This document shows, in pieces, positions 3,347 through 32,421 of a DNA stretch of 64,000 bases (positions within the stretch are counted from its first letter, which is position 1; each line of letters starts with the position of its first letter). The position numbers and the translations under genes were made by a program. The notes under the pieces are model-generated. The model searched no databases and was not told the origin of the DNA. It saw only the letters and a list, made by a program, of their open reading frames with translations. The DNA is from an uncultured Gammaproteobacteria bacterium (GTDB lineage: Bacteria > Patescibacteriota > Patescibacteriia > Buchananbacterales > UBA6539): positions 16,916 to 80,915 of the forward strand of contig CAZHUO010000002.1 of NCBI GenBank assembly GCA_964535715.1. Direction: 5' to 3'.

Positions 3347-3760
3347 ATGCGAGTACGAGCGATTATAATTAAGGACAATAAAATAATCCTGATTAAAAGA
3401 GTAAGACCTAATGAAACATATTGGGTTTTTCCCGGTGGCGGTGTTGATTCTGGCGAAACAAAAGAAAATGCCCTAGCTAGAGAAATTAAGGAAGAATTGG
3501 GTTTGGATATTGAAGTAAAAGAATTATTTCTAAAAAGGCAATCAGATAAACCGGGAATGGAAGGTATAATGGAATACTTTTTTTCGGCAGATATTATCGG
3601 TGGTGAGCTCGGCAGTGGCGATGGTCCGGAATACCAGAGTGGTACTAATTATGAAGGTAATTACAAAATTGATTTAATTGACATTGGTGATTTAGACCAA
3701 ATCAATTTAAAACCAAAAGAAGCTAAGGATTTGGTTCTAAAATTATCTAGTCAAAAATGA
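3347..3760 (+). CDS. NUDIX hydrolase
   Basis: Nudix box GGGVDSGETKENALAREIKEELGL. Confidence 0.85.
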   Translation: MRVRAIIIKDNKIILIKRVRPNETYWVFPGGGVDSGETKENALAREIKEELGLDIEVKELFLKRQSDKPGMEGIMEYFFSADIIGGELGSGDGPEYQSGTNYEGNYKIDLIDIGDLDQINLKPKEAKDLVLKLSSQK

Positions 3761-15600: not shown

Positions 15601-15765
15601 TGGTCGGGCTGGGGAGATTCGAACTCCCGACCTCCCCGCACTAATGTCCGCGAATTGGCATTTTTGAAATTTAAAGTTAGATTAGCGCGAACACCGCCTG
15701 CGGCTGGTATTTCAAGAGATGAGACAAGATAATAGACATGGTGCGGGGCAGGCATCATCCCGAAC
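15601..15765 (-). pseudogene. Disrupted tRNA-Pro remnant (3' part only, interrupted by a 119-bp insert)
   Basis: 15601-15633 is identical to the CCA, acceptor, T arm and variable loop of the intact tRNA. 15753-15765 (catcatcccgaac) is a mutated anticodon stem/loop. No 5' half is present. Confidence 0.7.
15634..15752. repeat. 119-bp IR-flanked insert at the variable-loop/anticodon-stem junction of the tRNA remnant
   Basis: CCCCGCAC (15634-15641) and GTGCGGGG (15741-15748). The same CCCCGCACTAAT word occurs at 5270-5281. Confidence 0.55.
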
Positions 15766-15790
15766 TTAAGTAAAGCAATTTTTAATTCTC

Positions 15791-15847
15791 TCGGGCTGGG
15801 GAGATTCGAACTCCCGACCTCATCGTCCCGAACGATGCGCGCTAGCC
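15791..15847 (-). pseudogene. tRNA-Pro 3' fragment (D-loop to acceptor, no CCA)
   Basis: 57 of 57 identical to 16149-16205 of the intact tRNA. It diverges on both sides. Confidence 0.8.
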
Positions 15848-16123
15848 CCCGCCAGAGGCGGGTCGGCCTTTGGCGGAAGCTGCTCTAATAATTATATTAC
15901 GAACTTGTCTTCCAAATCCACTTTTGTAAAATTTTTCTCTCATAATAGCATCCTGTTCGCATAAGTATTTTTCAAAATATAATAATATTAGATGACCATT
16001 CTCACGTGTCCATTTGTTCGATTTCTGATTATGTTGTTTTAATCTGTCTTCTGGATTAATTTTTGAGTAACCGACGTATATCTTTCCATTTTTTATACTT
16101 TTTAAAAAATATACATAAAACAT
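15842..16123 (-). CDS. GIY-YIG nuclease family protein
   Basis: MFYVYFLKSIKNGKIYVGYS...RLKQHN...REKFYKS. The stop TAG (15842-15844) lies inside the tRNA fragment. The GC-hairpin-encoded tail is AASAKGRPASGGG. Confidence 0.75.
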   Translation of the reverse strand: MFYVYFLKSIKNGKIYVGYSKINPEDRLKQHNQKSNKWTRENGHLILLYFEKYLCEQDAIMREKFYKSGFGRQVRNIIIRAASAKGRPASGGG

Positions 16124-16145
16124 AATGTAATTTATTAAATATATT

Positions 16146-16222
16146 TGGTCGGGCTGGGGAGATTCGAACTCCCGACCTCATCGTCCCGAACGATGCGCGC
16201 TAGCCAGCTGCGCTACAGCCCG
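16146..16222 (-). tRNA. tRNA-Pro (anticodon CGG), CCA encoded
   Basis: CGGGCTG-TA-GCGC-AGCTGGCTA-GCGC-G-CATCG-TTCGGGA-CGATG-AGGTC-GGGAG-TTCGAAT-CTCCC-CAGCCCG-A-CCA folds as a canonical 77-nt cloverleaf. Confidence 0.9.
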
Positions 16223-21704: not shown

Positions 21705-22202
21705 ATGCATACAAAATTAAACAAATGCCAAAAAGGCGTCACTTTAATAGAGTTAATGGTAAGTGTCTTGATTATCATATTGCTTGCAACCATTGGTATG
21801 ATTGCCATAAAGAATTCCCGGGCAAAGGCCAGAGACGCCAAAAGAGTTTATGATTTGCAGCAATACGCAAAAGCAATAAGGCTTTATGCCCAGTCAAGCC
21901 CCTCCGGCACCTATCCGCCAACCGCCGGTTTTCTGGGTAAAAATCATTTATCAGAAGATATTAATGACCAGCTGAAGCTATATATTCCGGATTTGCCAAG
22001 CGATCCGCTGGATTTAGGAGGAGATGTTGGAAATTATTTTTATTATTACATACCTGATAACAGCTGCTATGGCGGTGTTTATCCAACAGTGCATGTTTTA
22101 AACATAGAAACTTCAAATCCTGAATATAAAAAAAATGATTGTACTGACGGAAGTTCTGACAGGGGAGCGAATGCTGCAGACTATCTAATTATTATTCGCT
22201 AA
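21705..22202 (+). CDS. Type IV pilin-like protein (prepilin N-terminal cleavage/methylation domain)
   Basis: KG|VTLIELMVSVLIIILLATIGMIAI with Glu at +5. Confidence 0.8.
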   Translation: MHTKLNKCQKGVTLIELMVSVLIIILLATIGMIAIKNSRAKARDAKRVYDLQQYAKAIRLYAQSSPSGTYPPTAGFLGKNHLSEDINDQLKLYIPDLPSDPLDLGGDVGNYFYYYIPDNSCYGGVYPTVHVLNIETSNPEYKKNDCTDGSSDRGANAADYLIIIR

Positions 22203-30300: not shown

Positions 30301-30881
30301 CCGGGCATCTTCACAGAACCAATATCACAGCAGTCGGCGGTCCTATTGGCATCTGGAGAATGTCTTATGAAGTAACTACCAATACCGCAACTCTTGATGC
30401 TAATACTGCCTATTTGTATTGTGCTTCAGGTTGCAGCGGTATACCAAATGGTACTCAATTATCCGCTACTTCTGATGGTGCCGACGTTGAAGCCCAATCC
30501 CGTGAAAACTTTTTCCTAGAAGTCGATTCCTCTTTTGCTAACAGCAAATCATACGTTCAGATTGCTGAGAACGCAACTGCGGTAATTGACCTTTATGCAA
30601 CTATTTCCGGCCAAAGTACTACTCAAGTTGATAGTGCTGTTGTCAGATTGTTGGGCGACCAAGCTACAACTACAGCTGACAATTTAACCGGTAATGCCGC
30701 TACTACATCAGTCTGGGGTGAAACCGATCAAGTTCATAATAACTTCATCTGGTCATCTCTGTACTCAGACAGCAGTAATTCCGCAGCTGCTTTAGCTGCT
30801 GAACAATGGTTTAATGGTTATTTGGTGAGCGGTATGGGAACAGCAGTCAGTACTACACCTATTAGTATCCCGGAATCATAA
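27312..30881 (+). CDS. Large secreted surface (S-layer-like) protein, Thr/Ser/Ala/Gly-rich with repeated beta-rich modules
   Basis: 1189 aa. Signal peptide MKKLLTYSLVITTIVWSVGLIAMPLGVAA. N-terminal SPAVYYLGADGKRYAFP module. SD-like AAAGGA upstream. About 260-nt leader. Confidence 0.75.
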   Translation: MKKLLTYSLVITTIVWSVGLIAMPLGVAAVSSGSLIKKADSPAVYYLGADGKRYAFPRSEIYMTWYSNYSGVEVVSDEVFNSYAYGGSVFPKPGVKLVQFVDGETPWHVLDPKVYAVAGDGVLRHITTAEAAVSIFGANWETMIIPIIELLASEYTFGADIVSASDFDKAAETAESSTINENQNLGGVVSGGTSLTVSLAADTPASGIVVANAGRVPYTKVNLTASADGDITIDSWVVLRAGLAQDAAFSSVDILDGATMLPINETGKTFNSTHKANFTEDFVIPAGTTRSIYLAGNMGATGSYAGETPALALESVVLKSGGAVIGSLPITGNYQTVNGTITIGTATVSRGAYTNATDTTLEVGKTAYTFFSFKIENGSAEKVSFSNIKVYQKGSASLSTDLDNLALYQDGTKVADGTVSGNYITFVFTPIAFEKGATKQYQVKGDIISGSARVIELGIYRSTDLLVKGETYGYNITPTYSGTGSSSSNPVLQDNEFTVSQGTFRVGRSSTVGSENIAVGDNQTLGAFELEAKGEPIIVSALTLTIVSSTVGATILEDALQSVKLVDASGATVAGPTDVTNNALTVAFTDSFTVPVGVNHYKVVGNIATNGGWISNNTIYAKISTPATAITAKGENTGLSITPTPAADITTATQTVKAANVTVSKNSTPTNKSVITNSTGVLIGSWSFDASNSGEDIRITSIAIKASSTGKLNNLTLKDGSTALDPTNDAVTATTIAAPTTSTFALSEPIIITKGTSKTINLYADIGSDALQGEVDAWGITSGAAVTAYGVTTGNSANVSVTASDGALVTIATAGTIEFLEHADSLTQRLVVDGSTAQALTDMKVKATNEDVDITSLTIYVQDGGLTGTGAGSYTQLSKVYLKLDGTIVGNVDGYNMADASKLINLERGQLTIPKGDAGKKLSILGDIVEIGTGEPGTEAVDIKVGISDPATTVGAGSNASAARTYTDASGSAVIIHEAVPQVAIVPVATFGGSLASGHLHRTNITAVGGPIGIWRMSYEVTTNTATLDANTAYLYCASGCSGIPNGTQLSATSDGADVEAQSRENFFLEVDSSFANSKSYVQIAENATAVIDLYATISGQSTTQVDSAVVRLLGDQATTTADNLTGNAATTSVWGETDQVHNNFIWSSLYSDSSNSAAALAAEQWFNGYLVSGMGTAVSTTPISIPES

Positions 30882-30934
30882 TAAGATTTTCGCGATCCGA
30901 TATAGATTCTTATAGATAAAATTTCTATAGGATG

Positions 30935-30988
30935 AATAAAATCAAGAAGCCCTGCCAAAAGCGGGGCTCTTGATTTTATTGGGTTTTT
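30935..30988 (+). terminator. Strong intrinsic terminator after the surface-protein gene
   Basis: AATAAAATCAAGAAGCCCTGC-caaaa-GCGGGGCTCTTGATTTTATT, followed by gggttttt. Confidence 0.8.
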
Positions 30989-31007
30989 GGGTTAAAATGA
31001 GGACATA

Positions 31008-31210
31008 TTGTCATTCTGAATTTATTACTGCTTTGTCATCCTGAATTCATTTCAGGATCCAGTAAAGCCTAGAGTGACAAGTCTAGAAAAAAAGCACCCC
31101 CTTTGTCATCCTGAAATTGGTTCAGGATCTGGAAAAGTCTAGAAAGCACCTCCTTGTCATTTCGAGCGACTCACCGAAGCCTAAAAGGCGGAGGTGAGGA
31201 GTCGAGAAAT
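31008..31210 (+). repeat. Array of four TTGTCAT(C/T)(C/T)(C/T)GA(A/G) hairpin repeats upstream of the GIY-YIG gene
   Basis: Copies at 31008, 31033, 31103 and 31154. Hairpins ATCCTGAA-n5-TTCAGGAT occur twice. TTTCGAGCGACTCACC...GGTGAGGAGTCGAGAAA also forms a hairpin. Confidence 0.75.
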
Positions 31211-31224
31211 CCCACACGTAAATT

Positions 31225-31521
31225 ATGCAAGAAAAAGAATACTATACATATATCATGATGAACAGGTGGAACACGGTTTCTTATGTCGGAATAAGCGGCG
31301 ATCTTTCCTTTAGGGTTTGGCAGCACAAAGAAAAGGTAAATGAAGGTTTTACTAAAAAATACAACATCAATAAGTTAGTTTATTATGAAACCTATGATAA
31401 TCCCGATGACGCCATTGTCAGAGAAAAACAGTTGAAACGGTGGAACAGAAAGAAAAAGGTTGATTTAATAAAAAAAGAAAATCCTGAATTTAAGGACTTA
31501 TCGGATGGTTGGGAGGTGTGA
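31225..31521 (+). CDS. GIY-YIG nuclease family protein
   Basis: YYTYIMMNRWNTVSYVGISGDLSFRVWQHK...AIVREKQLKRWNRKKK. Confidence 0.8.
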   Translation: MQEKEYYTYIMMNRWNTVSYVGISGDLSFRVWQHKEKVNEGFTKKYNINKLVYYETYDNPDDAIVREKQLKRWNRKKKVDLIKKENPEFKDLSDGWEV

Positions 31522-31558
31522 GATCTCTCCACTCCTCTTTTAAATAAAACAAAGTCGT

Positions 31559-31632
31559 CGGTCGAGATGACTAAGCGAGAGATTTTTTTCAGCCCTAGCT
31601 AATGGGATTCTTAAACTAGTTCAGAGTGGCAA
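31559..31632 (-). repeat. Inverted copies of the TTGTCAT-type repeat downstream of the GIY-YIG gene
   Basis: The reverse complement of 31559-31573 (TAGTCATCTCGACCG) matches TTGTCATTTCGAGCG at 12 of 15. The reverse complement of 31620-31632 (TTGCCACTCTGAA) matches TTGTCATCCTGAA at 10 of 13. Confidence 0.55.
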
Positions 31633-31677
31633 TAAAGAAAATAAAGCCTCTAAATTTAATCCTTAATCCTTACAAAA

Positions 31678-32421
31678 ATGTCTGAGAAAAAAAGAAAAAT
31701 AATTATATCTTTAGCTGTTGCTTTTGGCATTATTTTAATTATCGCCGGTCTGCTTTTTTATTATCAGAAGCAGGGAATGATAAAAATATTTCCAACCAAA
31801 GAAGAAAAAGAAATTGCCAAAATTTTGGAAATTGACAGAGAAAAGCTTCGTCCGGCTCAGGATTTATCGCAAGAAGATTTTGAAAAGATAATTAAAGAGC
31901 TTGAAAAAGAGAAAGAAAATGTTTTGTCAGATCCAAAAAGCGCAACCGCCTGGCATGAATTTGCAATCCTTAAAAATTTTTTAAACGATCACCAAGGCGC
32001 TGTTGAAGCCTGGGAAATGTCTTTTGAGATTCAGCCAAATAATTTTAGAACGGCGTTGAATTTGGCAAATACTTGTCAGTATTTTGTAAAAGATTATCCA
32101 AAAGCCGAGTACTATTACAGAAAAGTTTTAGAATTACAGCCCCAATTAACCTCGGCATTTGACGGACTAATGGATCTTTATCGCTATAATTATAAAGAAA
32201 AGCAAAGTGAATACGAGCCATTGGTTTTGCAGGGAATTGAAAATGATCAGGCTAATGCCGCGGCTTATTATTCGAGCCTGATTGGGTTTTTTATGTCAGA
32301 AGAGACATCAAATGAAGAAAAGGCCGTCAAGTATTGGGAAAAGCTTAATAGTATTGATTCAGTCAAAGCTGAAGCGGCTTTTGATTCTTATCCAAAACTT
32401 AAAGAACTAGTAGAAAAATAG
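31678..32421 (+). CDS. Membrane-anchored TPR repeat protein
   Basis: N-terminal TM segment. TPR-like AWHEFAILKNFLNDHQGAVEAWEMSFEIQPNN and AEYYYRKVLELQP. Confidence 0.65.
   Translation: MSEKKRKIIISLAVAFGIILIIAGLLFYYQKQGMIKIFPTKEEKEIAKILEIDREKLRPAQDLSQEDFEKIIKELEKEKENVLSDPKSATAWHEFAILKNFLNDHQGAVEAWEMSFEIQPNNFRTALNLANTCQYFVKDYPKAEYYYRKVLELQPQLTSAFDGLMDLYRYNYKEKQSEYEPLVLQGIENDQANAAAYYSSLIGFFMSEETSNEEKAVKYWEKLNSIDSVKAEAAFDSYPKLKELVEK

Follow-up and report, generated by a model that had tools for sequence, protein, structure and literature searches.

In a 64,000-nucleotide (nt) stretch of contig CAZHUO010000002.1 (hereafter "the window"; G+C content 35%), a gene for a GIY-YIG protein of 98 amino acids (aa) lies amid a small array of oriented hairpin repeats. 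This locus very probably represents an Ssn/SRM module, in which an ssn nuclease gene stands amid its cognate Ssn-related motif (SRM) hairpins. The best homologues of the window genes are found in metagenome-assembled genomes (MAGs) of Patescibacteria (candidate phyla radiation), and the assignment would extend the Ssn/SRM system to a bacterium of that group. Ssn proteins were described by Chenal et al. (Nat Commun 2025, 16:2388; PMC11893778) as single-domain GIY-YIG proteins of about 94 aa (CDD cd10448) that act as site-specific endonucleases on single-stranded DNA (ssDNA) only, binding hairpin repeats and cutting a few nt upstream of them. This ssDNA-specific and orientation-specific cleavage upstream of the hairpin was demonstrated for four Ssn proteins; the complementary strand, double-stranded DNA (dsDNA) and RNA were not cut (PMC11893778). 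The repeat of Neisseria is named NTS (CGTCATTCCCGCGMAVGCGGGAATCYRG) and its counterparts in general SRM. The GTC that forms the three bases 5' of the palindrome matters for cleavage, and the C directly 3' of the palindrome matters most for binding. An SRM was found nearby in 71% of the homologues and on both sides in 42% (PMC11893778). The system is therefore already described, and the present locus is a typical example of it rather than a surprise.

The predicted protein exhibits the Pfam domain PF01541 (GIY-YIG; E-value = 9e-13, residues 6 to 78) and no other domain. NCBIfam, PADLOC and PHROGs returned no family beyond the Pfam GIY-YIG, and a sequence search of the PDB gave no close solved relative, the top matches being spurious designed TIM barrels. 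The UPF0213 structure 1zg2 matches the protein only marginally (E-value = 0.16), a weak match that argues against the neighbouring family cd10456. For the comparison with Neisseria gonorrhoeae, we used the gonococcal chromosomes (2.17 Mb) that PLSDB labels as plasmids. A tblastn search of a 7.3-Gb database with the window protein hits one place per N. gonorrhoeae chromosome with an E-value of 1e-17, the homology threshold for Ssn in the original description being E < 1e-10 (PMC11893778). The open reading frame (ORF) at this place reads ...VYILASQRNGTLYIGVTSDL...REKQLKKWNRAWK..., comprises 94 codons from an ATT codon, lies among seven canonical NTS repeats, and carries Y6, Y17 and E64 as numbered in PMC11893778. 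From its 94 codons, this residue numbering and the NTS flanks, we infer that it is the SsnA orthologue. The window protein aligns with it without gaps over 85 aa (BLASTP, 44% identity, E-value = 2e-27), and its Y9, Y20 and E67 align with Y6, Y17 and E64 of SsnA. The two catalytic tyrosines and the glutamate are invariant in 30 homologues, and all 23 invariant columns of the family, which is very large (at least 7995 matches), are present in the window protein. Judged by these similarities, the 98-aa protein is a member of the Ssn nuclease family. In the gonococcal strain of locus L006 (NZ_CP119142.1, about 1480-1764; compared loci are given L numbers throughout), the ssnA ORF exhibits no in-frame ATG (ATT ATA TGC ACG GTT TAT...), and may have a non-ATG start or be a pseudogene.

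The repeats around the gene stand out from the rest of the window. An earlier reading of the sequence, referred to below as the original prediction, had noted four forward copies of a repeat head, three hairpins, a degenerate tandem repeat and two inverted copies downstream of the gene. The head TTGTCATYYYGAR indeed occurs four times, always forward, at 31008, 31033, 31103 and 31154, where 0.13 copies are expected; none of 100 shuffled sequences reached four copies. Two of these copies head perfect 8-bp hairpins, ATCCTGAA-n5-TTCAGGAT, at 31038-31058 (-6.2 kcal/mol, z = -4.4) and 31108-31128 (-6.3 kcal/mol, z = -2.5), which we call type A. The third hairpin, type B at 31154-31217, is imperfect (-9.9 kcal/mol, z = -1.3). 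The tandem repeat has a period of 70 nt, with 81% identity between 31031-31073 and 31101-31143, and both units also have AAGTCTAGAAA and AAAGCACCYCCTT in common; TRF did not call this duplication. The evidence first offered for the two inverted copies did not hold by itself: as 13-mers they have two mismatches each, and such matches are not above chance in the window (23 versus 29 expected). Longer comparison, by contrast, shows both to be real. The segment 31516-31575 (B') inverts the whole 31154-31217 element with its head and tail blocks conserved, and the arms 31196-31217 and 31516-31537 are 86% complementary. On the minus strand, 17 of the 22 positions specified in the 27-nt consensus of the short hairpin are matched by 31606-31632 (A'), and a match with at most five mismatches is expected 0.07 times per window; a better-preserved A' (three mismatches) occupies the same alignment columns in L026-28. 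The bracketed unit of about 420 bp proposed originally (31154-31573) is genuine and spans 31154-31575, bounded by inverted hairpin elements of about 60 nt. A search of Rfam at a permissive E-value over 30800-31800 gave chance-level matches only, none of them on the repeats.

The layout of the repeats matches that of the NTS: T-GTC-ATCCTGAA-n5-TTCAGGAT-C-(CAG/TGG) in the window compares with C-GTC-ATTCCCGCG-MAV-GCGGGAAT-C-YRG in Neisseria, and B and B' keep GTC-AT(T/C)TC...GA(A/G)AT-C. On this comparison, the window repeats fit the SRM architecture and its functionally mapped positions, and not the published search string.

Some observations weigh against the assignment to the Ssn/SRM system. 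The published pattern, HGTCWYN(0-2)YYVSBRHN(0-5)WNVSBRGN(0-2)RNCYNB (PMC11893778), has no match in the whole window, whereas the same script finds eight in a 3.25-kb gonococcal locus; it fails because of the AT-rich stem, CCTGAA having T/A where V/S is wanted. In this copy, B and B' fold weakly (z = -1.3 and -0.95) and A' has decayed, so that some of the SRM sites may be relics. The 64 kb contain only five or six SRMs, with no dispersed population such as that of Neisseria. To our knowledge, the biochemistry of Ssn proteins covers no member of the candidate phyla radiation.

Because the published pattern gave no match, we wrote a looser detector that asks for GTC[AT][CT], a stem of at least 6 bp directly after GTC, and then C. 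Its calibration gave 9.1 +/- 3.6 chance matches per 64 kb. It returns 17 matches in the window, of which five are clustered at ssn and the other 12 correspond to the background level. With this detector we surveyed 80 metagenomic loci encoding homologues of 48-64% identity. An SRM-like hairpin occurs within 250 nt of the gene in 71 of the 80 loci, and on both sides in 51. A forward copy is found upstream in 60 loci, a reversed copy downstream in 56, and both in 46. The orientation is accordingly biased, with 76 forward versus 31 reversed hairpins upstream, and 75 reversed versus 26 forward hairpins downstream. Hairpin density is 5.5 per kb near the genes versus 0.51 per kb farther off, and this roughly 11-fold concentration bears out the association of repeat and gene; a random distribution relative to the genes was not seen. 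In a less circular check, a basal hairpin followed by C was present at 63% of the GTCAT sites near the genes, at 20% of those far away and at 6% of those within genes. Across lineages, conservation covers the stem base AT(Y)C...G(R)AT and the sequences flanking it. The rest of the stem varies yet stays complementary (ATCCTGAA, ATTCCCGC, ATTGCGAG, ATCCCGCA and others), and the exact type-A stem of the window is also present beside homologues of only 48-57% identity. The detector found no SRM in the P0005 group (L022-25) and in some distant homologues (L012-16). The AT-rich variant of the SRM is missed by the published pattern, so that surveys with that pattern undercount such pairs.

From left to right, the locus consists of the terminator, a truncated A, two A copies, B, ssn, the reversed B' and the reversed, decayed A', and the next gene begins at 31678 (Table 1). 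The heads face outward on both sides, A, A and B being forward upstream and B' and A' reversed downstream, and every SRM copy of the window lies within 220 nt of ssn. Within the terminator hairpin, an inverted repeat with 18-nt arms (89% complementary), a terminator-like site at 30948-30968 is followed by a T-rich tail; the hairpin is conserved in L026 and L019, as is type-A copy 1. Compared with the 19 nt that open the next copy, the truncated A is 89% identical; it has no fold and is absent from L026 and L019, relative to which the unit 31101-31153 is an insertion. B ends 7 nt 5' of the ssn start codon and is conserved in L019-21 and L026-28; B' is conserved in the same loci and in L110, and its tail (GTGTGAGAT on the plus strand) includes the TGA stop codon of ssn.

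Table 1. Features of the ssn locus, with positions in the window
Feature	Position	Strand	Remark
Terminator-like hairpin of the upstream 1189-aa gene	30935..30980	+	left boundary of the module, outside the module
Truncated type-A SRM, head and 5' arm only (TTGTCATTCTGAATTTATT)	31008..31026	+	exact pattern match
Type-A SRM copy 1, TT-GTC-ATCCTGAA-ttcat-TTCAGGAT-C-CAG	31033..31062	+	no mismatches to the short-hairpin consensus
Second unit of the 70-nt tandem duplication, type-A copy 2 and spacer	31101..31153	+	
Type-A SRM copy 2, TT-GTC-ATCCTGAA-attgg-TTCAGGAT-C-TGG	31103..31132	+	
Type-B SRM, forward, long hairpin TTGTC-ATTTC...GAAAT-C-CCACAC, left terminal repeat	31154..31217	+	
ssn gene, 98-aa single-domain GIY-YIG nuclease, Ssn family	31225..31521	+	Pfam and SsnA homology
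Type-B' SRM, inverted, right terminal repeat	31516..31575	-	inverted copy of 31154-31217
Decayed inverted type-A SRM (A'), reverse complement TTGCCACTCTGAACTAGTTTAAGAATC	31606..31632	-	

A scan of genome contigs with the single protein gave 11 loci, and comparison with relatives shows how the module sits in its neighbourhood. The syntenic locus L026 has the order 1189-aa gene, ssn (77% identity), tetratricopeptide repeat (TPR) gene and Wzy_C gene. The terminator, one A, B, the gene, B' and the better-preserved A' are retained there, and neither the truncated A nor the second 70-nt unit is present; SRM copy number thus varies between relatives. In the closer relative L110, this site is occupied by ssn and B'. 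Buchananbacteria (L112/113) and Doudnabacteria (L114/115) retain the order of large surface protein, TPR and Wzy_C genes, and their site is empty: the spacer of 117 or 142 nt contains no ssn and no GTCAT hairpin, only a terminator hairpin. At L112 and L114, this analogous terminator hairpin is the sole structured element of the empty site. The empty-site relatives are distant, with a TPR protein of about 50% identity. In the window, L026 and L110, ssn occupies the same site despite 59-65% identity of the neighbouring TPR protein.

These comparisons bear on the possibility that the hairpins are ordinary RNA or transcription signals (a terminator, an attenuator, an mRNA stabiliser or an operator) having no partnership with a nuclease at the DNA level. 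The reversed SRM does lie where a terminator would: among the surveyed loci with a reversed downstream copy, it begins no more than 8 nt downstream of the stop codon, or overlaps this codon by no more than 8 nt, in 37 of 56. On the coding strand, the conserved SRM tail ATC-TCA becomes TGA-GAT; the repeat therefore often includes the stop codon, and does so in the window (GTG TGA GAT). Moreover, the sigma-70-like sites of the plus strand upstream of the gene are found only 5' of the SRM array, which would place the SRMs in the leader, and regulation was what the Ssn authors considered initially (PMC11893778). We nevertheless regard this explanation as quite improbable. A conserved terminator at 30935-30980 already serves the upstream gene, no T-run follows any SRM, and the terminator scan calls none of them; on these grounds, the terminator reading was rejected. 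The conserved non-palindromic flanks (GTC...C) coincide with the mapped determinants of ssDNA binding and cleavage, and the tested Ssn proteins bind neither RNA nor dsDNA (PMC11893778). In addition, the relatives without ssn have no such hairpins at the same intergenic site, which is not the behaviour of conserved terminators or promoters with fixed positions, the alternative that the original prediction had set against its own proposal.

The GIY-YIG domain and the presence or absence of the gene at a syntenic site would also suit a free-standing GIY-YIG homing endonuclease cutting double-stranded empty alleles, with flanking repeats that are incidental. We find this scarcely credible. The protein has no DNA-binding domain beyond its 98-aa catalytic core, which led us to reject the homing-endonuclease reading, and it does not match the models of group-I-intron endonucleases, unlike the other GIY-YIG gene of the window. 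It is clearly homologous to SsnA, and throughout the family the repeats show a tight, directional coupling to the gene.

That other GIY-YIG gene (15848-16120, minus strand) exhibits 30% identity to the Ssn-type protein and a weak match to group-I-intron endonucleases. Within the region 15601-16222 (minus strand), it comes directly after a tRNA-Pro(CGG) gene at 16146-16222 and precedes two partial copies of the 3' portion of the tRNA, at about 15791-15850 and at 15601-15632; after the last partial copy comes the same AAATATATTTAATAAA as after the intact tRNA. This arrangement suggests that about 545 bp were inserted at the 3' end of the tRNA with duplication of the target. It contains no SRM hairpins, which marks it as a different kind of GIY-YIG element.

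By analogy with the four tested homologues, the most likely function of the Ssn/SRM module is a hairpin-guided cutting of ssDNA. The 98-aa protein would bind the SRM hairpin formed in single-stranded DNA, reading the stem base and the C just 3' of the stem, and would cut the same strand a few nt 5' of the GTC head, sparing the complementary strand, dsDNA and RNA. As the heads face outward on both sides, sites open to cleavage would lie, on each strand, at the module's 5' edge. The most likely role, again by analogy, would be the processing or restriction of SRM-bearing ssDNA, incoming or replicative, and thereby a modulation of recombination; neisserial transformation provides the precedent for such processing or restriction (PMC11893778). 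In Neisseria, expression of the nuclease was shown to lower the efficiency with which SRM-containing donor DNA is transformed or recombined. The gene and its two flanking repeats persist as one compact and probably selfish module. Each new Ssn/SRM pair is also a candidate tool for sequence-specific cutting of ssDNA.

Beyond the syntenic site, close homologues (77-81% identity) are located in different gene neighbourhoods, beside S-adenosylmethionine (SAM) synthetase, DUF2391, enolase and 434-aa genes. An all-against-all blastn comparison revealed units of about 410-430 bp that are common to loci with unrelated flanks. The cleanest pair, L009 and L010 from the same Gastranaerophilaceae MAG, exhibits 86% identity over 433 nt, the homology running from exactly TT(G/A)TCATCCCGCAGG to exactly CCTGCGGGATGACA. 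L066 and L076 are 86% identical over 408 nt. L019 is 95.6% identical to L027/28 over 429 nt, with the homology running about 9-12 nt past the hairpin tips. A second ssn copy, located beside a SAM-synthetase gene, is present on a different contig (L011) of the MAG to which L026 belongs.

Such recurrence suggests a further explanation, which extends the Ssn/SRM assignment and does not exclude it: B-ssn-B' (31154-31575, tips TTGTCAT...ATGACAA, about 420 bp) may be an autonomous mobile element of a new class, resembling an insertion sequence (IS). The GIY-YIG nuclease would serve as the transposase, introducing a nick into each strand immediately beyond the hairpin ends, which face outward; the movement would be completed by recombination or repair functions of the host, solo SRMs possibly being landing pads, and the short type-A hairpins would be non-autonomous satellites, like repetitive extragenic palindromes (REP) or miniature inverted-repeat transposable elements (MITE). 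The Ssn authors pointed out the IS-like NTS-ssnA-NTS layout and raised the same mobility hypothesis (PMC11893778). In agreement with it, a discrete unit with terminal inverted repeats is found in different contexts, as is characteristic of an IS, a second copy exists in the MAG of the syntenic copy, syntenic sites are empty in Buchananbacteria and Doudnabacteria, and type-A copy number differs between relatives. On the other hand, no target-site duplication was seen at the ends of L009/L010. Strand transfer is not known for GIY-YIG hydrolases, so that integration would need host recombination. The empty sites belong to distant relatives and indicate gain or loss rather than recent movement; the gene has been stable at one site over long periods (the window, L026 and L110); and recombination between dispersed SRMs could give the same changes of context. 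We consider an autonomous element plausible but rather unlikely. If the locus were one, few autonomous transposable elements known from prokaryotes would be smaller, and it would be the first of them to rely on a GIY-YIG enzyme. In sum, the comparisons fit the gain of a discrete module, while recent transposition is not demonstrated, and they are compatible with a selfish history of the IS type or of the type of REP and their associated tyrosine transposases (RAYT), a history that the Ssn authors had themselves proposed.

The same Ssn/SRM module may be set beside the systems that it resembles. It shares with the Ssn/NTS system of Neisseria (PMC11893778) a GIY-YIG protein of one domain and about 94-98 aa (44% identity to gonococcal SsnA, with the catalytic Y, Y and E aligned), repeats flanking the gene on both sides, the GTC head, and a stem that starts with AT and ends with AT, followed by C and YRG. 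It differs in its AT-rich stem (ATCCTGAA, or ATTTC with a long interior), in its host from the candidate phyla radiation (Patescibacteria), in having gene-flanking copies only (over 64 kb) where Neisseria has hundreds of dispersed ones, and in the orientation of the nearest SRMs, which are head-outward here and head-inward at the gonococcal locus. The REP or bacterial interspersed mosaic elements (BIME) with their RAYT (TnpA-REP, an HUH Y1 transposase-like protein) likewise combine a small nuclease gene with inverted hairpin repeats recognised as ssDNA, additional repeat copies in local mosaics, and a scenario of domesticated transposase that applies to both. However, RAYT is an HUH tyrosine enzyme with a covalent intermediate whereas the present enzyme is a GIY-YIG hydrolase, their folds and chemistry being unrelated, and the 64-kb window gives no sign of a genome-wide expansion of repeats. 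The IS200/IS605 elements, which move by peel-and-paste, are also compact, with ssDNA-hairpin ends recognised by their own enzyme and cleavage at a distance from the hairpin. Both of their ends, however, sit on one strand and do not form inverted repeats, whereas the ends found here are inverted; moreover, GIY-YIG enzymes are not known to perform strand transfer. The neisserial dRS3 repeats and intergenic mosaic elements (NIME) form oriented hairpin arrays with short repeated spacers and varying copy number, to which the 70-nt unit of A plus spacer is comparable; the sequence and the host are different, and the array here is very small (two to three units). Finally, UPF0213/YhbQ (cd10456), Slx1-type proteins and homing endonucleases (I-TevI, Seg) have the GIY-YIG catalytic core in common with the window protein, which is unlike them in its lack of an extra DNA-binding domain and of an intron or dsDNA-homing context.

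Overall, the structural interpretation given in the original prediction is supported, for a system that was itself already published (PMC11893778). The outward heads, the stop codon within the repeat tail, the units of about 420 bp and the empty sites bear on the past or present mobility of Ssn/SRM modules and on their role outside Neisseria.

Several other observations concern individual loci. In the Planktothrix agardhii plasmid NZ_LR882964.1 (L007, 17341-20616), an Ssn homologue of 52% identity is surrounded by at least eight SRM-like hairpins and lies between a type IIL (MmeI-like) restriction-modification gene and the DISARM gene drmA, i.e. in a defence-island context. In Rhizobium sp. 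CIAT894, plasmid pRheCIAT894e (L116, 584919-588176), an Ssn homologue lies beside a peptidase gene and adjoins an IS4 transposase gene. The corresponding peptidase gene of 115 other Rhizobium-group plasmids has no ssn next to it (relatives about 85% identical), which indicates that ssn is accessory in that lineage too. The window also encodes, at 21705-22202 (plus strand), a type IV pilin-like protein with the N-terminal sequence GVTLIELMVSVLIIILLA; it may be relevant if the Ssn nuclease acts on taken-up DNA.

Three independent assemblies (L019-L021) join the 1189-aa gene to an ssn copy and then to the SAM-synthetase gene, whereas in the MAG of L026 one contig carries the 1189-aa gene with ssn and TPR, and another a partial ssn with SAM synthetase. 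The difference is due either to strain recombination between two ssn modules or to an assembler crossover at the repeat. L026 also contains a 52-nt direct repeat (2876-2927 and 3376-3427, 98% identity) on both sides of B-ssn-B', which is composed of the tail of an inverted A', a spacer and the B head. Such a pattern would be expected if a circular form had integrated by recombination at a solo SRM, or after a partial tandem duplication. The five public Logan contigs that encode a protein identical to that of the window (L001-L005) all end exactly at the first complete type-A hairpin (window 31033), probably at an assembly break caused by the repeat.

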